The translations under genes and the position numbers were made by a program. Of a stretch of 64,000 nucleotides of DNA, positions 4,454 to 18,692 are shown piece after piece; positions within the stretch are counted from its first letter, which is position 1, and each line of letters opens with the position of its first letter. The stretch is from a virus: positions 64,001 to 128,000 of the IMG/VR virus record IMGVR_UViG_3300025141_000029; one strand, 5' to 3'. Below the pieces are notes generated by a model, which was given only the letters and a program-made list of their open reading frames with translations, was not told the origin of the DNA and did no database searches.

Positions 4454-5270
4454 TGGTTGAAATCTCTTTTGTTAGTTGTTGTATTTTTAACACTTTCTCT
4501 AGAATATTTCTATTAATTTTCTTTTTTGAAAAAGAATTTAAAACATCTATTATCTGATTTTTTTTATCCAAAATCAATGGGCTATTATTGCCTTCTGTTA
4601 TATTAAGCAAATCTTTCTTTAATCTTGCAATTTCTTCATTTAAGAATACTTTGAATTCTAAATCATCTGTTTCACAAGAAGAAACATAATGTTTAATTAA
4701 ATCTTTTTGCTCTTGGAGCAATACATCTTCATATGTTTCATTAAATTTATTATAAAAAGTTTTAAATGCTAGCTTGCTTGTCGGCTTATATTTTTGTTTT
4801 TTAAGAATTTCGGAAGAAGCCTGGATCCTTTCTAGTATACAATCTTCTAATTTAATCTGCTCTTTCACGCTTACATTTTCGTGTAACACTTGATACGCAG
4901 TTGCCAGACTTTTATATTCAGAAATAAAATGTTCGAAAATATCTTTTCCTAAATCCTTATTAATTTTTTTTATCAATTTTGTCTGAGCATTAAAGATATC
5001 TTTTCTATTCAGACTTTGATGACGGATTTTCGTCTCATGTAAGACCTTATTAGCAAATTCATTATTCAAGTCAGCGGTCGACGTTAAGTTTTTGTAAAGC
5101 TCTAGTTCAGTATTTAAAATACTTTTTTTATTAAAAAATTCTTTTAAGATTTTAATAATTGTTTTTTTGCGAGATTCATCGGCCTTCAATGAAACAACTG
5201 TTAATTCGCGTACAAGAATTTCAAATAAAAACGCTGTATTTCTTTTTTTATTATGTTTATGTTTCGTCAT
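4443..5270 (-). CDS. Hypothetical helical protein downstream of the portal
   Basis: 275-aa ORF starting KHNKKRNTAFLFEIL; position between portal and protease. Confidence 0.7.
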   Translation of the reverse strand: MTKHKHNKKRNTAFLFEILVRELTVVSLKADESRKKTIIKILKEFFNKKSILNTELELYKNLTSTADLNNEFANKVLHETKIRHQSLNRKDIFNAQTKLIKKINKDLGKDIFEHFISEYKSLATAYQVLHENVSVKEQIKLEDCILERIQASSEILKKQKYKPTSKLAFKTFYNKFNETYEDVLLQEQKDLIKHYVSSCETDDLEFKVFLNEEIARLKKDLLNITEGNNSPLILDKKNQIIDVLNSFSKKKINRNILEKVLKIQQLTKEISTNVN

Positions 5271-7212
5271 ACTTCGACTCCAGAAGCGCTATTAGATTTT
5301 TGATATCGGTGTTGGTCTCAAATAATTTTCTCTCTTCATCATTATAAGTAGAATCAAGATTTTCAGTAACACCATGCGCAAGACGATTAATTTCTATTCC
5401 AGGAAACATCTTTCTTCTCGAAGAACCTTTGTGCTCATCAGCCCAAAGACCTTTCATGTGTCTTTTTCGGGCGCCCATATCTCTTCTATCACCGCCTTTA
5501 TTAGATCGCGGCTCATACCATCCGTGAGATTTCGAGGTTGTAGTATACGTTTTGCCATTTTCTTTTTTAACATCACGCTTCGGAGCAGCTAAGAGCGCGC
5601 TTTCCTCCTCACCGCCGGCCTCTTCGCCGGCGGGTTCTTCGGCGGCGGCTTCTTCGCCACCAAATTCTTCACCACCAAACTCTTCACCACCAAACTCTTC
5701 ACCGCCAAATTCTTCACCGCCGCCTAGGCCGGCCATGCCGCCTTCGACACCTTCGGCTGTTACATCTTCTGCTGCTTTTTCTAGATCAGCAACCAATCTC
5801 TTGTCATGGAACATCTCTCTTTGAATTCTAGACATCTCTTCTGCCGAGACATTGAATATGTGTTCCGCAAGCCAGCGCTTACTGAAAAAGCCTTCTGTGG
5901 CCCCAGACGCAACTTCAAACTTAGTTCGCCAATGTTCTAATTCCTGAAGTTGTGCTAATTTAGAAGGATTGTTTAAACGAAGTTTAAAAGAAGTTAGATC
6001 TTTACCACGATATCCTCTTGTAAACAAATGTACAACTGCTATCTTTTCTAACTCTGAAATAACTGATCGTTGTAAGCGCTGTACTGTTCTGGCAAACCTA
6101 ATATCTTTTTGTGCTAAAGTTGTTTTATCTTCATCGGCCCCCTCAGAATTTGTTAGATAAGAGGGTGGAATTTTAAGTGCGCTGAATAATTTATCTCTAA
6201 GATATTTAACATCATCAATGTCGCCAGTAAATGTACCTCCAGGCAAACTTTCAACCTTTGTTGATTCTCCGCCCCTTACAGGAATAAAATAATCTTCTTC
6301 GATTGACATCGGGTTATAACGTAGGTCGACGCGGCCGCTATCAGCATTGACTATTTGATTTCTTTTCATTTGTGTCATAACACGCTGTACATATTGTTCA
6401 ACATCCTGTGGGGGGATATTACCTACATCAATATAAAAAACTCTTCTTTCAGGCGATCTTACAATGCGATATGCCATCATAGCATCTTCCAAAAGTGTTA
6501 ACTGGCGCCAAACTCTACGAGCAGGCTCCAGAACTGATGTTCCATATGGAGCATATTTATCATTTCCTAAAATTCTAAAATGTGCAACCTGCCAATTTTC
6601 TAATGTAAGGCCGGCTGAATTCCATTGGTATTGAACATATTTGGGATTATCTTCATCTTCCCCCTCTAAACGTTCCACTTCTTGTGAAGGAAGTCCAATG
6701 GCATACTGGATTCCGTCTTTTTCGTCTATATCCAAATATAGAAAAAAATCACCAAATTTACAAAGAGACCTGGCCCATCCAAAAATATTAAATTCAATAT
6801 TTAAAATATTGTGATATAAATTTTCTAATTCTATTTTAATTTCTTCATCGTGAGTTACTATATTTAATAGTGGTGTTAATTCAGTTGAAGTTGTAATTTC
6901 ATCTGCATAAATATCCAAGGCAGAAGCAATCTCGGGCATATATTCCATTTGGTCAAAATCAATATATCGATCAGTTCGATTTTGATTAGACATAAAGTTT
7001 GCTGCAAAGTTACCCTTTTGCCCATATTCTGTTTTTTTAAATGTTTGGCCGCTGGCAGACTTAAACGTATTGGCATAATTGTCTAAATGTAATCGTCGAG
7101 GATGTCTCGTAGTTTGCTGTCTATACGTCGTTAAGGGACCAGATAAAAGCTTGGTTAACTTTCTAAATAATCCATGTTGTGGATTTCTTGGATTTGTATT
7201 TCTATTAGCCAT
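5257..7212 (-). CDS. Portal protein (T4 gp20-like) with acidic C-terminal extension
   Basis: PEIASALDIYADE, LEDAMMAYRIVRSPERRVFYIDVG, EEDYFIPVR and DIRFARTVQRLQ motifs. Confidence 0.95.
   Translation of the reverse strand: MANRNTNPRNPQHGLFRKLTKLLSGPLTTYRQQTTRHPRRLHLDNYANTFKSASGQTFKKTEYGQKGNFAANFMSNQNRTDRYIDFDQMEYMPEIASALDIYADEITTSTELTPLLNIVTHDEEIKIELENLYHNILNIEFNIFGWARSLCKFGDFFLYLDIDEKDGIQYAIGLPSQEVERLEGEDEDNPKYVQYQWNSAGLTLENWQVAHFRILGNDKYAPYGTSVLEPARRVWRQLTLLEDAMMAYRIVRSPERRVFYIDVGNIPPQDVEQYVQRVMTQMKRNQIVNADSGRVDLRYNPMSIEEDYFIPVRGGESTKVESLPGGTFTGDIDDVKYLRDKLFSALKIPPSYLTNSEGADEDKTTLAQKDIRFARTVQRLQRSVISELEKIAVVHLFTRGYRGKDLTSFKLRLNNPSKLAQLQELEHWRTKFEVASGATEGFFSKRWLAEHIFNVSAEEMSRIQREMFHDKRLVADLEKAAEDVTAEGVEGGMAGLGGGEEFGGEEFGGEEFGGEEFGGEEAAAEEPAGEEAGGEEESALLAAPKRDVKKENGKTYTTTSKSHGWYEPRSNKGGDRRDMGARKRHMKGLWADEHKGSSRRKMFPGIEINRLAHGVTENLDSTYNDEERKLFETNTDIKNLIALLESKYDET
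5650..5724 (-). repeat. 15-bp coding tandem repeat (GGEEF)x4 plus GGEE in the portal tail
   Basis: Plus-strand unit tcttcaccaccaaa(c/t), about 5 copies. Confidence 0.85.
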
Positions 7213-7220
7213 CTATATAA

Positions 7221-8795
7221 TTATCCTTTCAGCAACCAAACATGATCAGCATAATTTTGTTTTTCATCATCTTTCTTAACATATTTATGGCCACGCATAC
7301 CTGGAACTGTAGTGTTGATAATTGTATCAGATTTTTTCATACAGTTTAAGAAAGCTTTTTTATATTCCATGTCCCTTTGATTTACCTCAAACGCAATATC
7401 TTTAACCCAACAACCAATCGCAAAAGCCATAACCAGGTCATCATTATATCCGCGCATTGCTTGCGGCTTGCTATTGTGCCAAATAAATGTCTTCATTTCA
7501 TTATAGGTTCTTATTGAATACATCGTAATTAGTTTATTTCTAATGAATTCTTCCAACTTGGCGATAACCAGGGGACGTGTTTTTGAAGTCATCGAAAATC
7601 CCATAACGGCATTGTTGGCTCTTTCGCCAATCAGAGGGTCAACATATTCATGACTAGATTTATATGAGTAAAATATATTTGGATAACTAAATTCTTGAAG
7701 TTTATCAAGAACTGTCCAGCCAACTGTGTTGTTTTCGACAACAACCATACAGTTGCCATATTCCTTTCCAACTTCATTTAACATATTGGCAAATAAATCT
7801 GGCGTCGCTTTTCCCTGATATTCTCCAACAATTTCCATCGTTTCAATTTTAAATATTAAAAATGTTGAATAATCTTTGCCGTCTCCGCGGGCCACATCTG
7901 CAGATAAAAGATACGTTGAATCTGGCTGATACTTCTCCCAAACCCAAAAATTACGATCAAAGCCAGTTTTATATTCTGGTTCTCGTAGGCCACCCTCAAT
8001 AATTTTCATATCATCTGCGTGAAAAACAGTTTCGCCAGACATATTAAAACTACATTCTAGCTCCTGTGCTATTTGACGTCGTGACATATTTTTGGTCTCA
8101 TTTTCAAACCAACCTTGATCACGATCTGGATGAACATCCCACTTTAAAGATGTCAAATAAAAATCATTATTTTCTTGTTCGGCATCAACACAAGTTTGGT
8201 GAAACCAGTTACCTACACCATTTGGTGTGGACAAGGCGATACAGCGTCCTCCAGTAGATAAAGTAGGATATAAGCCGGTCCACAATTCTCCAAGACCTTC
8301 AATATGTGCGGCCTCGTCAATTACAAGTAGCGATAATGCTTCTGAGCGGCCGGCGTCTGTTGATGTTGAGGTGGCTTTGATTTGTGAGCCGTTTGTTAAT
8401 TCGAAAGAAGTCCTATTGTCAATTGATATTTCAGAAATGCGAAGCCAATCTGGTAGATTTTTATGAATCGCTTTAACTTTTTTAACAAGATTTGAAGCAG
8501 TCTTAAACTGTGTCGCAATAACAAGAACGTTCTTTTCTTTATGGAAAAGCATTATCCAGGCAACGTAAGCAGCAGTGATTGTTGAAATGCCAAGCTGGCG
8601 CGCTTTTAAAATTACATTAAAGCGATAATCAGTAAAGTCTCTAACTAGTTGCGTCTGAAAATCATAAGTGTTAAAGGGTATTAAGCCGTGTTGTGGGTGT
8701 GATATCCTAGCATAACTATTAATAAAGTATACAGGATCTTTACCAGATTTTACAATTTCTTTTAAAATCTGGTCTCTGGTGGGTTTGTAGGGCAC
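7221..8795 (-). CDS. Terminase large subunit (T4 gp17-like)
   Basis: KARQLGIST Walker A, LLVIDEAAH Walker B, STPNG, nuclease ADVARG and NDDLVMA; GTG start overlaps upstream TAG. Confidence 0.95.
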   Translation of the reverse strand: MPYKPTRDQILKEIVKSGKDPVYFINSYARISHPQHGLIPFNTYDFQTQLVRDFTDYRFNVILKARQLGISTITAAYVAWIMLFHKEKNVLVIATQFKTASNLVKKVKAIHKNLPDWLRISEISIDNRTSFELTNGSQIKATSTSTDAGRSEALSLLVIDEAAHIEGLGELWTGLYPTLSTGGRCIALSTPNGVGNWFHQTCVDAEQENNDFYLTSLKWDVHPDRDQGWFENETKNMSRRQIAQELECSFNMSGETVFHADDMKIIEGGLREPEYKTGFDRNFWVWEKYQPDSTYLLSADVARGDGKDYSTFLIFKIETMEIVGEYQGKATPDLFANMLNEVGKEYGNCMVVVENNTVGWTVLDKLQEFSYPNIFYSYKSSHEYVDPLIGERANNAVMGFSMTSKTRPLVIAKLEEFIRNKLITMYSIRTYNEMKTFIWHNSKPQAMRGYNDDLVMAFAIGCWVKDIAFEVNQRDMEYKKAFLNCMKKSDTIINTTVPGMRGHKYVKKDDEKQNYADHVWLLKG

Positions 8796-9289
8796 TATCC
8801 TTTGCCAAGGAATTTTTTAAACTTTGTATCTAGTGTATTCTCGCTCGGCTCAAGACGATCAGTAATGTCTTTCAAATTTCCAATTTTAAAAACTTTATTC
8901 GCTGTAACAAAAACTCGAACGCGGCTTGTTGACTGTACCATAGCATCAGCTTCACCTTCGGCAGTTAGAGAAATAGTTTTTCCAGTAATTTGTTTATATC
9001 TTTTACGAAGATACTTCGCAATATCTTTAAATGTTGATTCAATATCGTTTTCAAAATTTGTAGCATATACATCTTTGAGACGACAATCGGATTGATATGT
9101 TACAAGCAGCTTGGTTCCATCGATACGACACTTAAAACCATCCATTACTCTTGAATCTAGAACGGGATGGCCCTCTTCTCTTTTCAGGCCGACCTTAACT
9201 GGCTCACCTTTATCATCTAGCGCACCATCATATGAATCTGCAGCTGCCTGCATCAATCCTTTTACAACATCTAAATCTAATTGTGACAT
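8795..9289 (-). CDS. Hypothetical protein
   Basis: 164-aa ORF with GGAG RBS, coupled to TerL. Confidence 0.7.
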   Translation of the reverse strand: MSQLDLDVVKGLMQAAADSYDGALDDKGEPVKVGLKREEGHPVLDSRVMDGFKCRIDGTKLLVTYQSDCRLKDVYATNFENDIESTFKDIAKYLRKRYKQITGKTISLTAEGEADAMVQSTSRVRVFVTANKVFKIGNLKDITDRLEPSENTLDTKFKKFLGKG

Positions 9290-9672
9290 TTATTTTCTCC
9301 TGGTCTCCAGCCTTTCAGCCATCGGTCTTCGCGGCCTTCGACGTAATTTATAAAACATCTTTGGCAACATTCAAATTTATTATAATATATATCGTCTTTA
9401 ACTGTTTTTAGTCTTTTTATACAAACTGGGCAAACTAAAATGCTAATTTCTCTAGTAAGTAGTTTTTTGTTAACTAAAAATCCATCAACCTCAACCTTCT
9501 CTTGTTGCTCTTCGAGCACACATTGAGACGCATCCAGTTCTTTTAGTTGCTCAAGGTACTCTTTTTCTTTGTCTTTGGACCAATTTGAATTTGGATTTAT
9601 AGTTGCGTCTTCGCCATATTTTTGATTAATGGCTTTTTCAATTTTTGCTATGTGGTTCCAATCTTTGTCCAT
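9277..9672 (-). CDS. Hypothetical protein with C-terminal Zn-binding Cys motifs
   Basis: CPVC...CCQRC. Confidence 0.65.
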   Translation of the reverse strand: MDKDWNHIAKIEKAINQKYGEDATINPNSNWSKDKEKEYLEQLKELDASQCVLEEQQEKVEVDGFLVNKKLLTREISILVCPVCIKRLKTVKDDIYYNKFECCQRCFINYVEGREDRWLKGWRPGENKCHN

Positions 9673-9676
9673 ATAG

Positions 9677-9684
9677 TAATTAGT
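9677..9684 (-). promoter_or_regulatory. Candidate late promoter ACTAATTA
   Basis: Recurrent motif, 4 nt upstream of the ATG at 9672. Confidence 0.45.
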
Positions 9685-9750
9685 TCAAAAAGCACGAGGG
9701 CTCGGTTGAACCTATACTTTATAACATTAATTATAAAATGTTAAGTTTAA

Positions 9751-10539
9751 TCAACTTGTATCTCCCAGAGGGATCCACTTATAAGTACTCCCACCAGTTT
9801 GAACACTATATAATATGATCCCCGTGGCGTTTGTAAAAGTTTTTGTTACACTGCCAGCTGGATTATTAAAAATTAGTTTAGGGTCGCCGCTAGAACTTTT
9901 GAGACCGAGAACAACCTTAAGTTGACCATGTAGAGATGAGTCAGCTAAAGTGCAAATATTATCTACACTAGCTGTACAATGAATAATACTAGTGGGAGTC
10001 GTTGTGGGTACTGCGGAACCAGATATCGTTAACGCAGTTCCGTCACCACCCAGAATCACTTTCCTGTACATTCCAAAACCATCATTGGTTGAGTCAACTT
10101 TAGCTGCAACGTTTGCGCCGGCTGTTAAAAATCGAAGATCAGCGCCAGCTATTTGAGCACCCAATTGAGGTCCAGTGGATCCAGATGCAATGGATAATAG
10201 ATCAACATTATCTTTCTGAAAGACAACAGATCCACCAGAGGCATCAAGAGAAATATTCGCCGATGAATCAACTCTAACGCCACTACCAGAAATAGTTATG
10301 CCGGTGCCTGTGGCGACATCCATACGATTAGTGCTGCCTGTGCCAAAAGTAATATATTTATCGGCTGGTATTCGTATACCCGAAGAAGCAGTTATATATG
10401 AACTAACGCCCAATGTGGAAAAAACAGTGGATCCAGAAACTTCTAGAGATCCTGAAATACTTATGGTAGTGTGAGCTGTTATCGAGCCGGTCGTGCTTCC
10501 AGTGGCTGGGTGTAGATTATTTACGTAAAGATTACTCAT
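9751..10539 (-). CDS. Ser/Thr/Gly-rich putative virion (fibre/decoration) protein
   Basis: Beta-rich low-charge composition with repeated SGS/TGS. Confidence 0.55.
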   Translation of the reverse strand: MSNLYVNNLHPATGSTTGSITAHTTISISGSLEVSGSTVFSTLGVSSYITASSGIRIPADKYITFGTGSTNRMDVATGTGITISGSGVRVDSSANISLDASGGSVVFQKDNVDLLSIASGSTGPQLGAQIAGADLRFLTAGANVAAKVDSTNDGFGMYRKVILGGDGTALTISGSAVPTTTPTSIIHCTASVDNICTLADSSLHGQLKVVLGLKSSSGDPKLIFNNPAGSVTKTFTNATGIILYSVQTGGSTYKWIPLGDTS

Positions 10540-10820: not shown

Positions 10821-11284
10821 TAATTTTGTACCTCCACTGCTGCGTAGAAAATACCAATTGATAATACAATGCCCGCAATAATACCACCAGCAAACCACCA
10901 GTGAGAATGATCGTCTATCTCATCTTTAATAATTTCATTTAATTGATTGATTTCTTTTTCTTTCTGGACCAATAATTGATTATGCATATTTTTTAAAGAA
11001 TCATGTTGTACTCGTAGGAGATCAATTGCTAATTGTTTATTCGCCAGTTGAACCTCAAAATCTTTTTTTATTTTTAATTCAAGCTCTATGCCACAATATC
11101 TACTTTTTGCTATAAACTTTGCGCCGGCTATTGAATCCAAGAGAATGCCAGAAAATGGTGCTGGCTCATCAACAGAAATTGATGTTATGTTGCCTTCTTG
11201 ATTTTCTAGTTCTTGAGCTGTGGCACTTGTCGTTACACAAAGAAAACAAATAATTAAAAAAATTGTAAATATTTTTTTAAACAT
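10820..11284 (-). CDS. Spanin-like membrane protein
   Basis: N-terminal signal/TM segment, coiled coil and C-terminal TM (WWFAGGIIAGIVLSIGIFY); follows the holin-like gene. Confidence 0.45.
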   Translation of the reverse strand: MFKKIFTIFLIICFLCVTTSATAQELENQEGNITSISVDEPAPFSGILLDSIAGAKFIAKSRYCGIELELKIKKDFEVQLANKQLAIDLLRVQHDSLKNMHNQLLVQKEKEINQLNEIIKDEIDDHSHWWFAGGIIAGIVLSIGIFYAAVEVQN

Positions 11285-11898: not shown

Positions 11899-14800
11899 TT
11901 ATTGATTTACTGAAGCAAAACCTTTTCTTTTCTCAATTATAATTTGTGTATCAACCGTATCTTTCAAAGAATCTAAGTGAGAAATAAGAAGCACAGTCTT
12001 GAATTGAGTTTTAATCATATCTAAAATTCTAATGAAACCTTCCATATTTTCTTCGTCTAAAGTTGTACCCGGCTCGTCCAAAACAAAAATATCACCTTTT
12101 GGTAAAGTTGATACATTTAAAAGTGCAAGACGAATGGCCATGGCCGCAATTGTTTTTTCTGCGCCAGAGCCCATTTCAATTGGGCGTGGATCGTGGCCGG
12201 GATGTTTAATTAAGATGTCAAGTTTTTTATCTTCATTTTCAAAAAAAACTTCAAAGTCAACAATATTGGCAATAACCTTTGAAATTTCAGCATTAATCAG
12301 CGGCAAGCGCTTTTTAATAATATCGTAAGAAATTCCATTAGCATGCATACAGTTCATAAACAAATCGTAAGCAGAAAAATTATTACATAATGTTGTATAA
12401 TCTTCTTTATCCCGCTTAATCTTTTCAACTCGTTCTTCTAGCGTTCCATCTTCTTTATATAAATTAAGAATAAGTTTTTGACAACGATCATATTGTTTGC
12501 TTAATTTGGTAACTTCTTCATCAACTTCTTCTTCAGAGATTTGTAAAGTTTCCAAGTTTTCAATAAGTTTCTTGTTTTGATCATAATATTCCCTTTGTTT
12601 CTCAAGTTCTATTAAGTATGTTTTAATTTTAAAAGACTCGTTTTTATTTTTTTCAACTTCAACATTCAACAATTGTAGATCAACTTTTGATTCAGATAAT
12701 TTATGCTGAAAAGATCCATAATCCTCTAATATTTTTTTATTTTCTTCTGGTTTTAAAGCATTTAATTCTGCCTGTGTATTGTTTTTTATAATAGAAAGCT
12801 CCTCCAGTGAAACGCCAGATGAACTTATTAAACGTTTTGATTTGTGGGCATCTTCAATAAACCTACAAGTTGGAAACTTATTACCACAAGGAACTTCATC
12901 CAATAAATCAATTTTCTTCTTCTGTCTTTCTATCTTCTCTTGTAGTCTCTGTATGTCACTTTCCAAATCTTTAATTTTTTCAACCCTTTGCTCAATCTCT
13001 TTTTGTTTTTCTTTAATTTCGTCAGCTGGGCATTCTTCCAAGAACTCTTCTATTTCAAGAACATGCTTTTCCTTTATATCAATTTGAGCTAAAAAGTTAA
13101 CTTGACTATGTTCATACTCTTTCAGCAATCTTGTTCGTTCCTCAATATTCGATATCAAATCTTTGATATCAATTATATCGTCAGGAATCTCTTTTAACTT
13201 TAGAGAAATTTCTTGTAGCTCATTTTGTTTTTCAGTTAAACTCTCTTTCAAAACAACACATTCAAGATCTTTTTGTTCTCGTTTAATGTTATTTTTATTA
13301 AAGATTTTTTCTGCTTCTTTTATTTCTTTATCAAATTCACGATCGTCGTCTCGGCGAATCAAAACTTTCATATCTCCAGCCTCGTCTTTCGCCATTTTGA
13401 ACTTGTGTTCAAAGACTTCAAGATCCAAAAATTTGGCGAGAATTTCTTTGCGGCGGGTCGAACCTTCACCGATATACGAAAGCGAGCCGAGCTGTGATGC
13501 CATTGAAGTTAAAAGAAAATCTTCAAGACTGCCAAAGATTTTTTTAATATTCTTGTCGGTCTCAATTCTTGAAGTACCATTCAGGCTTTTTTCTTCTTCT
13601 AAGGCATTATCGTAAACGCTGAACTCTAAATCAGTTTTTGCCTCTTGCGTTACGTTGCCTCGAAGCTTTTTAATATATTTTGTGCTAACTCTTTCAATTT
13701 TATAAGTTTTTGTTCCAATACCGATTTCAACGTAACCTCGACAATAATCTTTATTTTGATTAATGACATTGAGGTTTTTACGATTATTCTTTGATGTTGT
13801 ATTAAAGAGTGTGTAAAGTAATGAATCGACAATGCTGGATTTTCCAGAAAAGTTCTTTCCAAAAATCCCAACAATGCCGTTTAAATTTTCAAAATTAATA
13901 GAGTTTTTTTCACCATAGTTGAATAGATTATCCCATTCTATTTTCTTGAGTCGCCAGTTGATATTCCGCGAGATTTCTTCCTCTTCCTCGACTCTTGTTT
14001 TATAAATGCGATTAAGATTGAGTATCTTTTGAGTCGTTTCGGTATCGACTTGATACTCTTGTAAATATTCTTCAATTAATTCCTCCTGAACATTGATGTC
14101 GCGCAAATCTTCTTTTACTAATGAATTGGTCAAATCCTCGATATTAATTCGATCACCTTGCGCACGATTTAAATATGTAATAGCCTCTGGTTTGAAGCGC
14201 GTTTTTGCAACATCAATTGCGCGACGAATTATGTCCAACGGCAAATGATTTTCAGATACGAGACGGAGGCGCGCCCCTTTTTGAACTTTAACTTTCTTTG
14301 AAATTCTTCCGCGAGGCGTCAATTGAATTGTAATAAAAGGTTTTGGATTTTTTAAAACAAAATGCTCACAAGTAAAGTTCTCTTTATCTTTAATATCCCA
14401 AATCAAATATCCTTTGTCGCTTGTTTCTCCGTGATTCTGTTGGATCGTCGAGCCAGGATAACGTATCTTTCCTTCTTTGTCCAAGATTTGATTGGTTTTG
14501 TGTATGTCCCCAAGAAAACCATAGTCAAAATTATTAAAAATGCCAAGATCATTTTCCCCCCTTTCCATTGTCCACCCCAAGTCTGTTTGACAATTTGAGA
14601 TTGATCCATGATATAAAGCAATGTTTATACGATTTGAATCAGACGGATCCTGCCAATTGTCTTCATCAAATACAGACAACACATTCAGCGAGAAATTATC
14701 CCTTAAAGGCATCTCTCCCGAATTTCGTAGTAGGTATAGGCTCTGATGTTGTAATGCGTTTACGATAGGAGTAAGAGCGTCCTGGCGGCTTGAGTTCCGT

Positions 14801-15051
14801 AGGTTGCCATCGTGATTACCGAGAATAACATATGTTGGTGCTATATCTGCTAGATTCTTGAGGAAATCAGAACACATTTGAACATACTCGGGACTAATTT
14901 GAGTCTTCGTATGTGCGATATCCCCACAGTGAATTATATAATCTGGCTTCTGTTCTCGAAGGCTTTTATATAATTGGCTAAAAACCTCTCTATATTCTTT
15001 ATGATATTTTAAATTTCGGATATGAGTATCCGATATGTGCGCAAAACGCAT
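11899..15051 (-). CDS. Fused Mre11/SbcD nuclease plus Rad50/SbcC ATPase (T4 gp47-gp46-like)
   Basis: SDTH, GD, GNHD and GDIH phosphoesterase motifs; GKNFSGKS Walker A, coiled coil, GSGAEK signature, FVLDEP Walker B and ISH switch. Confidence 0.9.
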   Translation of the reverse strand: MRFAHISDTHIRNLKYHKEYREVFSQLYKSLREQKPDYIIHCGDIAHTKTQISPEYVQMCSDFLKNLADIAPTYVILGNHDGNLRNSSRQDALTPIVNALQHQSLYLLRNSGEMPLRDNFSLNVLSVFDEDNWQDPSDSNRINIALYHGSISNCQTDLGWTMERGENDLGIFNNFDYGFLGDIHKTNQILDKEGKIRYPGSTIQQNHGETSDKGYLIWDIKDKENFTCEHFVLKNPKPFITIQLTPRGRISKKVKVQKGARLRLVSENHLPLDIIRRAIDVAKTRFKPEAITYLNRAQGDRINIEDLTNSLVKEDLRDINVQEELIEEYLQEYQVDTETTQKILNLNRIYKTRVEEEEEISRNINWRLKKIEWDNLFNYGEKNSINFENLNGIVGIFGKNFSGKSSIVDSLLYTLFNTTSKNNRKNLNVINQNKDYCRGYVEIGIGTKTYKIERVSTKYIKKLRGNVTQEAKTDLEFSVYDNALEEEKSLNGTSRIETDKNIKKIFGSLEDFLLTSMASQLGSLSYIGEGSTRRKEILAKFLDLEVFEHKFKMAKDEAGDMKVLIRRDDDREFDKEIKEAEKIFNKNNIKREQKDLECVVLKESLTEKQNELQEISLKLKEIPDDIIDIKDLISNIEERTRLLKEYEHSQVNFLAQIDIKEKHVLEIEEFLEECPADEIKEKQKEIEQRVEKIKDLESDIQRLQEKIERQKKKIDLLDEVPCGNKFPTCRFIEDAHKSKRLISSSGVSLEELSIIKNNTQAELNALKPEENKKILEDYGSFQHKLSESKVDLQLLNVEVEKNKNESFKIKTYLIELEKQREYYDQNKKLIENLETLQISEEEVDEEVTKLSKQYDRCQKLILNLYKEDGTLEERVEKIKRDKEDYTTLCNNFSAYDLFMNCMHANGISYDIIKKRLPLINAEISKVIANIVDFEVFFENEDKKLDILIKHPGHDPRPIEMGSGAEKTIAAMAIRLALLNVSTLPKGDIFVLDEPGTTLDEENMEGFIRILDMIKTQFKTVLLISHLDSLKDTVDTQIIIEKRKGFASVNQ

Positions 15052-15630: not shown

Positions 15631-15876
15631 TTACGTTGTTAAATCCTCAAAAATTTTATTCATCTCTTGTTGTAGAGTTTTTGCTAACTCTTTATCATCA
15701 TTATTGATAGCTTCAAAATAATATTCACCTAATTTTTCAAAACGTTCTTTCAAAAGTTTTTTTAAATTTGGATTATTATTTTCAATCAAAACAGTACGAT
15801 TTGCTTCTTCTAAAATATGATATCGCTGAATTTCTTCATTAATAATTTGATTTAATTTTTGTTTAGTAATCTTCAT
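15631..15876 (-). CDS. Tagged small protein 4 (MKITKQKLNQIINEEI)
   Basis: AGGAG RBS; shared N-terminal motif. Confidence 0.75.
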   Translation of the reverse strand: MKITKQKLNQIINEEIQRYHILEEANRTVLIENNNPNLKKLLKERFEKLGEYYFEAINNDDKELAKTLQQEMNKIFEDLTT

Positions 15877-15885
15877 ATTATTCTC

Positions 15886-16308
15886 CTATTCATCAAAAGC
15901 TGTCATCGCTTGACCAATTTCTGTCATAAGAACACCAGGCTGAAGCAAAAATTTAAGCTGCTCAATTACAAGTTTTGTAGCAGGATTATCTGATGGTGAA
16001 GTCATAGTTTGAAGTTCTTCTCCAGCGGCTATAAACATCTTTCTGGCCTCGTCTCTGCCCATATCATCAGCCAATTTATATGCATCACTAACCAAAGAGG
16101 CCATCGAAGAGCTTAAAACCTCGGAACCTTGCTGAACTCTATTTCGATGAGTTTCCTCTTCAGCAGTGGGGCCTTCATATTCTGGGCGTCCCTTCTTCCA
16201 ATCTGTACCTGGACTGTGATGCGGATCTAGAGACATCCGCTCGCCTTCTTTAACCAATGCTAGCTCTTCTTTAATAATTTGTTTTAATTGTGATTTTGTA
16301 ATTTTCAT
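15886..16308 (-). CDS. Tagged small protein 3 (MKITKSQLKQIIKEEL)
   Basis: AGGAG RBS; shared N-terminal motif. Confidence 0.75.
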   Translation of the reverse strand: MKITKSQLKQIIKEELALVKEGERMSLDPHHSPGTDWKKGRPEYEGPTAEEETHRNRVQQGSEVLSSSMASLVSDAYKLADDMGRDEARKMFIAAGEELQTMTSPSDNPATKLVIEQLKFLLQPGVLMTEIGQAMTAFDE

Positions 16309-16322
16309 GGCATATGTCTCCT

Positions 16323-16652
16323 TTATGCGCCTAAATCTGCGGATGCATCATGATGCTGCTCTTCTAGTTCATCAGCCATATCACGAAGTGCCTCTGCTCG
16401 ATCCAGATCAGAACGCGTTGAACGGCCGATTAGTTGATCGATAAGTTTTATTTTACCCGATCGAATGAAGTCGTCATGTGAGCTTCGCGCCCGACTTCTA
16501 GAATCATCAACAACTTTGTCCAAAGGATCGGGTGGCCCACCTTTTCCTTGGCGGTGGTGAAAAGCATCTGATGATATATCTTTGACCCATTCTTCAGTCA
16601 TACTTAACTCTTCTTTAATAATTTGTCTTAATTGTTCTTTTGTAATTTTCAT
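16323..16652 (-). CDS. Tagged small protein 2 (MKITKEQLRQIIKEEL)
   Basis: ATGA overlap with the upstream stop places the start at 16652; shared motif. Confidence 0.75.
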   Translation of the reverse strand: MKITKEQLRQIIKEELSMTEEWVKDISSDAFHHRQGKGGPPDPLDKVVDDSRSRARSSHDDFIRSGKIKLIDQLIGRSTRSDLDRAEALRDMADELEEQHHDASADLGA

Positions 16653-16912
16653 AGGCCAAAAACTCCGTGATCTTCCATACATTTAAGATATGCCGGATCT
16701 TTACGATTGCGGCCTACACCACGGCACTTGCACTCTGCCCACATCCAGAGACCCTGATCATCGCCAGGCGGTACGCCACAAGGATCTGTTTCTGCAGCTG
16801 CCATAGAAGCTTCTTTTTCCCACCATGCTGCGTCTTCTGGGGAAATTTCTTTTAGTACTGCCGAAAATTCCTCTTTAATAATCTCTCTTAATCGTTGCTT
16901 TGTAATCTTCAT
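16649..16912 (-). CDS. Tagged small protein 1 (MKITKQRLREIIKEEF), Cys-containing cargo
   Basis: GAGG RBS; shared motif; four Cys in the C-terminal half. Confidence 0.75.
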   Translation of the reverse strand: MKITKQRLREIIKEEFSAVLKEISPEDAAWWEKEASMAAAETDPCGVPPGDDQGLWMWAECKCRGVGRNRKDPAYLKCMEDHGVFGL

Positions 16913-16936: not shown

Positions 16937-17246
16937 TGGTGGAAGTGCCGGGAGTCGAACCCGGGTCCTAAATATTTCCAACATATTGTCGTTCACAAGG
17001 TTAGTCAGTTTATGAACTCTGACAAACTTAAACGCACCGCGCACCATCAGTTTTTTAAAGAAACTGAAAACTCTATTTTGTAGTCTTGGTTAACAAGGCG
17101 ACTACAACCCCGTGATTACGCCGCTAGGGCGTATTCAAAGTCAACGTTATCGTTGGCGTTTAAAAGTTTGAGTGTTTTTACTGTGCCGCACTCACACAGC
17201 CTTGCACATTATATTTTCAATATTCAGTCGATACCAGTTCACCCCC
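16937..17246 (-). ncRNA. ssrA: tmRNA (one-piece, about 310 nt), tag ANDNVDFEYALAA
   Basis: 5' GGGGGTG pairs with 3' CACTTCC-ACCA with G3:U; T-arm CCGGG-TTCGACT-CCCGG; pk1 CTGTG/CACAG and TGAGTG/CACTCA; tag ORF at 17157-17116 ends YALAA*. Confidence 0.95.
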
Positions 17247-18183
17247 GCATAAGTAATTCATTAATTAAATAGTCATAAGACTTGATAAATGTTGCCTTTG
17301 TTTTCCTCTCTAAAAATTGATCTCGTGACATTTCGCCGACATCATTATATGGAAGAATATCAACTTTGTGAACCTCAATATCATACTCTAATAAAAGTTT
17401 TATAATCTTCAAAGTTTTTCTGTCAACATCCGGATCCAAAGCAATATAAACTGGCGTATCGTTTTTCACAATCTCTTGGAATAATTTTGAATGTTCCCTC
17501 AAAGTTGAACCAAGAATTGGAACAGCATTATCTCCTGCTTTAATCGCATCGAAAACGCCCTCGACCAAAATCAGATCTTCATCGAAGTCAAGATACAACT
17601 CATTGAAAATGATATCTTTGCTGGCTTGTGGATTTTTATATTTTCTCCAATCATCTCCATAGCTTCTGGCAATAAAGAAATTTGCTTTTCCGGCCAAACC
17701 AAAAGAAGGAACAATGACGCGAGATCCAAATTCGCCGTCGTCACAATATCCAATTTTCCATTTAATAATATCTTGTCTATAGACGTCGCGACTTTCCAAA
17801 TAATTTAAAGGATACAAAGAAGTCTTTGGAAGATTTTTATTTGCGAGAGATACAAATTCTTTTGGTAAATCAAGAGTCTGCTCTTCTTCAACGATTTTAT
17901 CATCTTGTAGCAAAGCTTCTGTAAAAGTTGAAATATCAATTTGTTGTGTAAACTGAGCCCATTCTTTGCGCTGTTCGTAATTTCCATAACGACGAATTAA
18001 ACGATAGACTGAATGGCCGGCATATTCGCAAACCCAACATTTGAATACATCGCGCTCAATATTAACTGAAAGTTTATTTTTGTGATGATCACATTTTGGA
18101 CAAGCGAAGAGAAGTTCATTTCCAGCTTGATTATAATATCCTAAAACATTTCTTAAAATTACGCGCTTTTTTCCATCTGACAT
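17239..18183 (-). CDS. DNA primase (Zn finger plus TOPRIM); track start 18210 also possible
   Basis: CPKC...CWVC Zn finger, KYKNP, LVEGVFD and ALDPD TOPRIM motifs. Confidence 0.88.
   Translation of the reverse strand: MSDGKKRVILRNVLGYYNQAGNELLFACPKCDHHKNKLSVNIERDVFKCWVCEYAGHSVYRLIRRYGNYEQRKEWAQFTQQIDISTFTEALLQDDKIVEEEQTLDLPKEFVSLANKNLPKTSLYPLNYLESRDVYRQDIIKWKIGYCDDGEFGSRVIVPSFGLAGKANFFIARSYGDDWRKYKNPQASKDIIFNELYLDFDEDLILVEGVFDAIKAGDNAVPILGSTLREHSKLFQEIVKNDTPVYIALDPDVDRKTLKIIKLLLEYDIEVHKVDILPYNDVGEMSRDQFLERKTKATFIKSYDYLINELLMRG
17266..17273 (-). promoter_or_regulatory. Candidate late promoter ACTATTTA for the tmRNA
   Basis: Inside the primase 3' end, about 20 nt upstream of tmRNA G1. Confidence 0.45.
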
Positions 18184-18692
18184 AAATACCCTGCTTTTGC
18201 AATCACCCAACTATCTGCTTTATCAAAACAGTGCGGTTTTGGATTGCCGTGCTTAGTATATTCTATAAGAACAGATGGTACATTGTCAAGAACATATTGT
18301 ATAACAACTTGTTTTGCTTTGACACCTTTTGGGATTTTGATGCCACATTTTTTTCTTGCGGACGTCGCAGCAACATATTCTGGCTGTAGTTCAAACACTT
18401 CATAACATAGCCACGAAACAATGCCGTTAAAACGAGATAATGTAGATAATGTCTTTGCCGATGAAAATCCAGATCGAAATGATTGAAGTGACTGTTCTAT
18501 AAAAACTGAAGAAATATTAAATTCATCATCAATCTGTCTAAGTAATTCTTTGATTTCGCGACCTTTGTGAAAAAGTGTTGGAAAATATTTTTTGTTTCGA
18601 AAGTCCCAAGCCTCATTAAAAACAACTTTTCCGTCATTGTCGATAACTGTTACGCCAGTTATGCTCGTGCTAATATCTAAACCTAAAATCAT
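18159..18692 (-). CDS. RuvC-like Holliday junction resolvase
   Basis: ILGLDISTSITG, VFIEQ and DKADS catalytic acidic motifs. Confidence 0.8.
   Translation of the reverse strand: MILGLDISTSITGVTVIDNDGKVVFNEAWDFRNKKYFPTLFHKGREIKELLRQIDDEFNISSVFIEQSLQSFRSGFSSAKTLSTLSRFNGIVSWLCYEVFELQPEYVAATSARKKCGIKIPKGVKAKQVVIQYVLDNVPSVLIEYTKHGNPKPHCFDKADSWVIAKAGYLCQMEKSA

Follow-up and report, generated by a model that had tools for sequence, protein, structure and literature searches.

How does a gene for a replication enzyme come to take its stop codon from a structural RNA, and does the arrangement serve the virus that carries it? The question is raised by a 64,000-nucleotide (nt) stretch of viral DNA, hereafter the window (positions 64,001 to 128,000 of the 157.7-kb IMG/VR record IMGVR_UViG_3300025141_000029), in which the gene of a DnaG-type DNA primase ends inside the gene of a transfer-messenger RNA (tmRNA) on the same strand. 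An earlier note on this DNA had read the overlap as a 'built-in feedback limiting replication', whereby maturation of the tmRNA makes the primase message nonstop. We find the overlap as written and find it wherever a related primase gene abuts the tmRNA; we consider it probable that it arose as a side effect of tightly docked genes and of cassettes coming and going, tolerated by the phage, and that it is not a selected feedback. The features of the junction are the following:

16937-17246, minus strand: one-piece tmRNA gene of 310 nt with its first nucleotide, G1, at 17246, an encoded CCA and a G3.U pair (ARAGORN, Rfam RF00023, acceptor-stem covariation)

17116-17157, minus strand: tag reading frame of the tmRNA, GCC...GCG TAA, which encodes ANDNVDFEYALAA followed by a stop (ARAGORN, which gives the coding part as gene nt 90-131, and sequence)

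17239-18210, minus strand: open reading frame (ORF) of a DnaG-type primase with zinc ribbon and TOPRIM (phrog_47, weak Zn_ribbon_DnaG and Toprim matches)

17239-17246, minus strand: the overlap, GGGGGTGA; tmRNA nt 1-8, which double as the 3' part of primase codons CGG GGG and the stop TGA

The tmRNA gene matches Rfam RF00023 with 116.9 bits (gathering score 47) over model positions 1-374 without truncation, and ARAGORN places the same ends. The full-length model match is accompanied by the other hallmarks of a one-piece tmRNA, namely a tRNA-Ala-like stem with G3.U and CCA, and a tag frame that carries a degron. The acceptor stem consists of the pairs G-C, G-C, G.U, G.U, G-C, U-A and G-C, and the CCA is encoded. 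Pair 5 covaries across about 50 related tmRNAs (G-C in 36, A-T in 10) and G3.U is kept in them, which makes the G1 boundary firm. The tag ends in the canonical YALAA degron, and the tags of relatives are conserved as ANDNV.F[DE]YALAA. No SmpB was found in the 157.7-kb phage record, which is 87% complete, and this partner protein must come from the host. The first 20 nt of the tmRNA, GGGGRTGAACTGGTATCGAC, occur in 5 of about 185,000 species genomes, as against 14 contigs of viruses and, in metagenomes, more than 120 stretches; judged by this distribution the tmRNA lineage appears to be essentially viral, and the five species genomes give no clue to the host. The phage tmRNA family comes in two size classes, of about 310 nt (window, L040, L046, L050; L numbers denote individual loci) and about 345-358 nt (L038, L039, L044, L106), the ends and tags of which are near-identical. 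The tmRNA of the L061 type is missed by ARAGORN and found by Rfam at 85 bits.

The longest primase frame begins with TTG at 18210; the likely start, as in relatives, is the ATG at 18183, which gives a protein of 314 residues (MSDGKK...). Residues 23-311 match phrog_47 'DNA primase' with E = 5.4e-34, and a CPKC...CWVC motif is visible; the Pfam scores are 19.3 bits for Zn_ribbon_DnaG (cut-off 24.9) and 16.7 bits for Toprim (cut-off 23.1). The closest primases of cultured phages, annotated 'DNA primase' and best represented by Flavobacterium phage immuto, are about 33% identical (tblastn). There is no close cultured relative, and the DNA search matched Streptomyces phages in the tmRNA core only.

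The primase gene ends ...CTT ATG CGG GGG TGA with its stop TGA at 17241-17239, and G1 lies 8 nt before the end of the ORF, with the result that nt 17246-17239 of the minus strand belong to both genes according to sequence, ORF list, ARAGORN and Rfam RF00023 alike. On this point the earlier note was correct. The tmRNA begins with GGGGGUGA (Rfam consensus GGGGguGA), and its conserved UGA, nt 6-8, supplies the stop of the primase frame. The locus shares the layout of the coding sequence and t(m)RNA overlaps described by Hudson et al. (2014), wherein an upstream coding sequence on the same strand has its stop inside the mature RNA. An assembly artefact was considered as the cause and rejected, the same junction being present in contigs from independent samples. 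The geometry leaves little choice: within GGGGRTGA a stop is possible either at -1 (a TAG ending on G1) or at -8 (the UGA at nt 6-8), and therefore any stop-less upstream frame in phase with the tmRNA UGA ends exactly 8 nt inside the tmRNA. As a lone case the overlap is no more than chance, with 1-in-3 odds that an ORF entering the tmRNA is in phase with this UGA; its recurrence in relatives is what exceeds chance.

A protein-guided scan of viral contigs yielded 35 primase loci, and pattern scans with the tmRNA 5' end yielded 14 viral and at least about 80 metagenomic loci. Wherever the primase abuts the tmRNA the same 8-nt overlap is present, in five distinct lineages with primases 69-96% identical: that of the window, L006/L067 and L007 (both 69-71% identical to the window primase), L061/L068/L122 (88.5%) and L106 (96% over the part available). 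Their primases end in ...INLRG or ...L[ND]LRG directly before the stop. Since five lineages share the overlap, it is not a one-off stop loss. L001-L005, with primases 87-93% identical, have lost it; there the primase ends two codons earlier with ...INL and TAA or TGA, and 0.7-2 kb of small genes lie between primase and tmRNA. Most of these are cassettes starting with the pattern MKITK..L..II.EE (hereafter MKITK cassettes), with two cassette ORFs in L001 and three or more in L003-L005. In every more distant primase (L008-L035) the gene carries a stop of its own at the equivalent position. The earlier note had named relatives that stop the primase before G1 as a sign of chance stop loss. Abutting relatives speak against such a loss, as all of them keep the overlap; L001-L005 do have a stop of their own, at loci where the tmRNA is not adjacent. 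In the primase tree a clade of 13 with 99/99 support splits into two branches, one comprising overlap types only and the other mixing overlap and insertion. From this tree the overlap is probably ancestral to the 13-member clade, and the simplest account has cassette insertion removing it on one or two occasions at least; recurrent deletion between short repeats may be an alternative to an ancestral overlap.

The genes around the junction are densely packed in one direction:

18159-18692, minus strand: RuvC-like resolvase ORF, the last 25 nt of which (18159-18183) overlap the probable primase start

15631-16912, minus strand: four small ORFs starting with MKITK..L..II.EE, the first beginning 24 nt after the tmRNA 3' end

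The 25-nt overlap of resolvase and primase means that overlaps of more than 8 nt are ordinary in this phage genome, and the junctions elsewhere in the operon span -25 nt (resolvase/primase) to +49 nt. As the first MKITK ORF begins so soon after the tmRNA, the operon continues through it.

Tight docking is likewise common in other members of the tmRNA family. Among the matches listed there are 66 distinct upstream contexts; the upstream gene varies widely, and 26 of the 66 contexts are MKITK cassettes. Of the contexts in which a full tmRNA is preceded by a frame of at least 60 residues (31 among these matches), 17 place the upstream stop within 8 nt of G1 on either side and 4 place it at -8; with the inclusion of tmRNAs cut by contig ends (51 contexts, again among the matches listed) the counts are 33 and 7, respectively. 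The overlap at -8 is not confined to primases: two MKITK cassettes (L087 and L112) and a 123-residue ORF (L062) also use the tmRNA UGA as their stop. A fourth non-primase candidate, L084, looks spurious. The phases of the upstream frames relative to the tmRNA UGA are distributed 12, 12 and 7 for full tmRNAs and 24, 17 and 10 with the contig-cut ones (among the matches listed); an enrichment of frames in phase with the UGA is not robust in these sets, the contexts of which share ancestry. In a few contexts a gap of 54-77 nt precedes the tmRNA, some of them with good promoter-like sequences, as in L048 (TTGACT, 17-nt spacer, TATAAT). In four cellular genomes with a confirmed tmRNA of the same 5' 20-mer the gap is at least 131 nt. 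The primase overlap is the extreme of a continuum of tight docking and is not specific to primases.

The MKITK cassettes stand in tandem arrays; each is a small ORF that starts with MKITK[SQE]QL[KR]QIIKEE and is otherwise unrelated to the others. Arrays are located at 15631-16912 (minus strand) in the window, 3979-4633 in L001, about 4000-6000 in L003-L005, 9000-12136 in L109 and in L058; four cassettes lie downstream of the tmRNA in the window, and one to five lie between primase and tmRNA in relatives. The sequence TAATTAC GGGGGTGAACT..ATG, which comprises the tmRNA leader and the first 11-25 nt of the gene, stands ahead of cassettes in L058, L073, L077, L080, L109, L114 and L121. In L109 copies of the form TAATTAC GGGGGTGAACT[GGTATCGAC] are found at 10055-10088, 11237-11270, 9379-9464 and other sites, directly before a cassette ATG. 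By their sequence the leader copies appear to serve as the ribosome-binding site of the cassettes, and they resemble the extended Shine-Dalgarno sequence GGAGGUGAUC. The same repeats could provide the homology at which cassettes recombine in or out exactly at G1; the varied upstream genes, the recurring junction of TAATTAC with GGGGG and the insertions in L001-L005 all fit cassette turnover at leader repeats.

What would the overlap mean for the RNA? Two promoter-like sites bear on this question:

18260-18289, minus strand: sigma-70-like site TTGACA, 18-nt spacer, TAGAAT, about 70 nt upstream of the primase ATG

17344-17372, minus strand: sigma-70-like site TTCACA, 17-nt spacer, TATAAT, within the primase gene about 90 nt upstream of G1, with 11/12 matches

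The promoter and terminator scans are consensus matches only. The site at 18289-18260 is, by its sequence, a candidate promoter of a primase-tmRNA co-transcript. The site at 17372-17344 may be an extra promoter for the tmRNA. L001 and L061 retain it, and L006 and L007, both with the overlap, have it in degraded form, so that its fate follows that of the coding sequence; its lack of conservation in L006 and L007 led us to reject it as a conserved tmRNA promoter. Comparison of the window with its relatives revealed no conserved promoter in the primase 3' region, and the consensus scan found no terminator-like site on the minus strand from 19221 to 15500. The earlier note had further suggested that a late-promoter motif at 17266 could supply tmRNA separately, which we do not find. 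The T4-type late promoter TATAAATA is absent near the tmRNA and not enriched in the window (10 matches vs 9.45 expected), and the bases at 17261-17275 encode the conserved residues DYLIN and are identical in relatives with the tmRNA 0.7-2 kb away. Finally, no protective 3' hairpin precedes G1 in the window, L006 or L007 (z-scores +1.4 to -0.7).

It is known that RNase P makes the tmRNA 5' end, that nonstop mRNA is degraded by RNase R and that trans-translation prefers short 3' extensions (PMC3985003). The explanation that we favour starts from a tmRNA placed without a spacer behind the primase gene, in the tightly packed one-direction operon of an uncultured marine myovirus. The primase frame, which lacks a stop of its own, runs two codons (Arg-Gly) into the tmRNA and meets a UGA, at nt 6-8, found in nearly all tmRNAs; the layout would have arisen at a junction that gains and loses MKITK cassettes, and would then have been inherited in one clade. 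Because nothing separates the two genes, transcription of primase should extend into the tmRNA. After synthesis of the full 310 nt and folding of the tRNA-like domain, host RNase P would cut at G1, and the upstream fragment would end in ...AUG C-3' with neither a stop nor a protective hairpin. The claim that a cut at G1 would leave a stop-less primase message accordingly stands, with no intergenic space, conserved promoter or terminator between the genes, if RNase P, as we infer, cuts there. The first ribosomes, following the polymerase before the tmRNA is completed and cleaved, would terminate normally at the UGA; those on the cut fragment would need rescue by trans-translation, their product would be tagged and the fragment would decay. 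On balance, tmRNA maturation would lower the primase yield modestly, an effect most likely tolerated and not selected. Relatives with stops 0-8 nt from the cut would produce unprotected and short-lived messages as well, and the overlap would therefore alter the outcome in degree and not in kind.

Three points weigh against this explanation. It presupposes co-transcription and a cut at G1, both of which we infer. The overlap has been kept over about 30% protein divergence though a single base change (TTA to TAA or TGA) would give the primase its own stop, and this persistence could reflect selection. However, with a rough estimate of about one neutral stop gain expected over the tree, persistence is uninformative either way, and the comparison has no statistical power to detect selection against stop gain. 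Lastly, about 13% of the contexts overlap (4/31 or 7/51, among the matches listed) compared with about 0.2% in bacteria, an excess that could go beyond what compaction explains.

The strongest competitor is the selected negative feedback proposed at the outset, according to which maturation of the tmRNA makes the primase mRNA nonstop, the tmRNA tags the primase with ANDNVDFEYALAA for destruction by host proteases, and replication is limited as tmRNA accumulates. The presence of the overlap, probably ancestral, in all five primase-adjacent lineages agrees with it, as do a tag that ends in a canonical degron and the absence of a separate conserved promoter or terminator near the junction; regulation by nonstop messages has a precedent in arfA (PMC3989581), and the same logic has been proposed for smpB-ssrA of Carsonella (PMC4131195). 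Against this, L001-L005 dropped the overlap in favour of their own stop without visible compensation, and the unrelated ORFs of L062, L087 and L112 share the same UGA, which shows that the layout is not primase-specific. Regulation of the arfA kind would call for a stop-removing element conserved wherever the gene occurs, whereas the primases of L001-L005 and L008-L035 have stops of their own. Messages with a stop 0-8 nt from the cut would likewise be short-lived and prone to rescue (PMC3985003), and the overlap adds little to this; with no stabilising 3' structure to keep the nonstop message translatable, the fragment would decay with or without a stop, and the proposed late promoter is absent. 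Together with the docking continuum these observations make a selected feedback unlikely. Its self-referential form, a selected circuit in which release of the phage tmRNA by RNase P makes the primase message nonstop and the same tmRNA then tags the primase for destruction, so as to time or cap primase supply, we hold to be quite unlikely.

A different proposal is that tmRNA maturation is gated by translation: ribosomes terminating 0-8 nt from G1 or inside the tmRNA would unwind the 5' strand of the acceptor stem, RNase P would release the tmRNA when upstream translation falls, and it is the docking and not the missing stop that would be selected. This would account for stops within 8 nt of G1 behind many different genes (17/31, or 33/51 with contig-cut tmRNAs, among the matches listed), and for the gaps of at least 131 nt in the four cellular genomes. 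We regard it as very unlikely all the same, for contexts with 54-77 nt spacers exist, some with promoter-like sequences (L048), gene junctions throughout this phage genome are tight as a rule, and common descent of the TAATTAC and GGGGG junction by way of cassette recombination accounts for the pattern with no need of selection. A further proposal holds that the overlap makes no difference to the RNA: the tmRNA would come mainly from the internal site at 17372-17344, and primase messages would be translated and degraded before processing matters. It is very unlikely despite the 11/12 match of that site about 90 nt upstream of G1 and its retention in L001 and L061, given that it is degraded in L006 and L007 and follows the coding sequence, that promoter-like matches are mildly above shuffles in this AT-rich DNA (29 vs 21.4 +/- 4.5), and that primase transcripts would still meet no terminator before the tmRNA.

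The concept of a nonstop message made by RNA maturation has been published: a coding sequence that overlaps a t(m)RNA becomes nonstop when the RNA matures, as in smpB-ssrA of Candidatus Carsonella ruddii (Mao et al. 2009; Hudson, Lau & Williams 2014, PMC4131195). There, as here, an upstream same-strand coding sequence enters the mature tmRNA, and the overlap is present in some strains only, much as it is present here in some relatives. The Carsonella gene is smpB, encoding the partner of the tmRNA itself, in a degenerate endosymbiont, whereas the present case involves a replication primase in a phage in which no smpB was found; furthermore, among bacteria Hudson et al. encountered an overlap of smpB into ssrA in Carsonella alone (PMC4131195), while about 13% of the phage contexts overlap among the matches listed. 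The survey of Hudson et al. (2014) counted 250 upstream same-strand overlaps among 115,660 bacterial t(m)RNA genes, about 0.2% (Table 4, PMC4131195), and regarded its cases as candidates for high-frequency nonstop mRNA, most of them derived from few evolutionary events. That survey covered cellular genomes; in the phage tmRNA family such overlaps are far more frequent, and cassettes turn over at the junction. In E. coli arfA an endonuclease removes the stop, and the product is tagged by tmRNA and degraded (PMC3989581), in parallel to the fate proposed for the primase. The arfA cut is made by RNase III at a hairpin inside the ORF, truncated ArfA is active when tmRNA is limiting, and this regulation is experimentally established; close relatives of the present phage, in contrast, do without the cleavage element found here.

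Among phage genomes about 2.3% have a tmRNA gene. Those of OM43 phage Melnitz, of pelagimyophages (PMC9004378) and of the Streptomyces phages of Karimacvirus are also embedded in an operon between protein genes, and in the Streptomyces phage Enygma the gaps are 15 nt before and 12 nt after the tmRNA. The described marine phage tmRNAs are mostly two-piece with no coding-sequence overlap reported, whereas the present one is one-piece and accompanies a primase with 33% identity to its nearest cultured counterpart. Our literature searches found no published report of a phage coding sequence ending inside a tmRNA. In mitochondria, tRNA punctuation offers a related principle, as the excision of tRNAs determines the 3' ends of mRNAs and may cut away part of the stop codon; the stop codon is then completed by polyadenylation. 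To our knowledge no such repair of stop codons exists in bacteria, and the result there is a nonstop message.

What is notable here is the frequency of the layout in a phage tmRNA family and the involvement of a replication gene; the concept itself is known. A layout published for the endosymbiont Carsonella only is now extended to phages, at about 60 times the bacterial t(m)RNA frequency among the matches listed. If the overlap is indeed passive, it illustrates extreme phage compaction, with an essential replication gene borrowing its stop from a structural RNA and each matured tmRNA costing one primase message. Were it regulatory, phage tmRNAs would acquire a concrete function and viruses a new kind of gene control, and a selected circuit would make this the first virus in which a replication gene is tied to trans-translation.

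Several minor observations concern the surroundings of the tmRNA and primase genes. L042 (38-358) and L045 (4119-4439) have the same tmRNA 5' end with an unusually long tag, ALAGTSRSLTGTKTRSLTGTFALAA, possibly an ARAGORN artefact, and in both a tRNA-Glu(CTC) gene follows the tmRNA 94 nt later. L056 contains ten tRNA genes at 4752-10048 and a copy of the tmRNA 5' 20-mer at 9417; 5 nt upstream of this copy is a sequence resembling a tRNA or tmRNA 3' end, GGTTCGACTCCCCACACCTCCA, and ARAGORN makes no tmRNA call there. Further along the minus strand of the window, 11899-15051 is a single ORF of 1050 residues that combines an SbcD-like metallophosphoesterase N-terminus (MRFAHISDTH...) with an SbcC-like ATPase, and in L012, L014 and L022 an ORF with the start MKFAH(I/L)... 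directly follows the primase gene.

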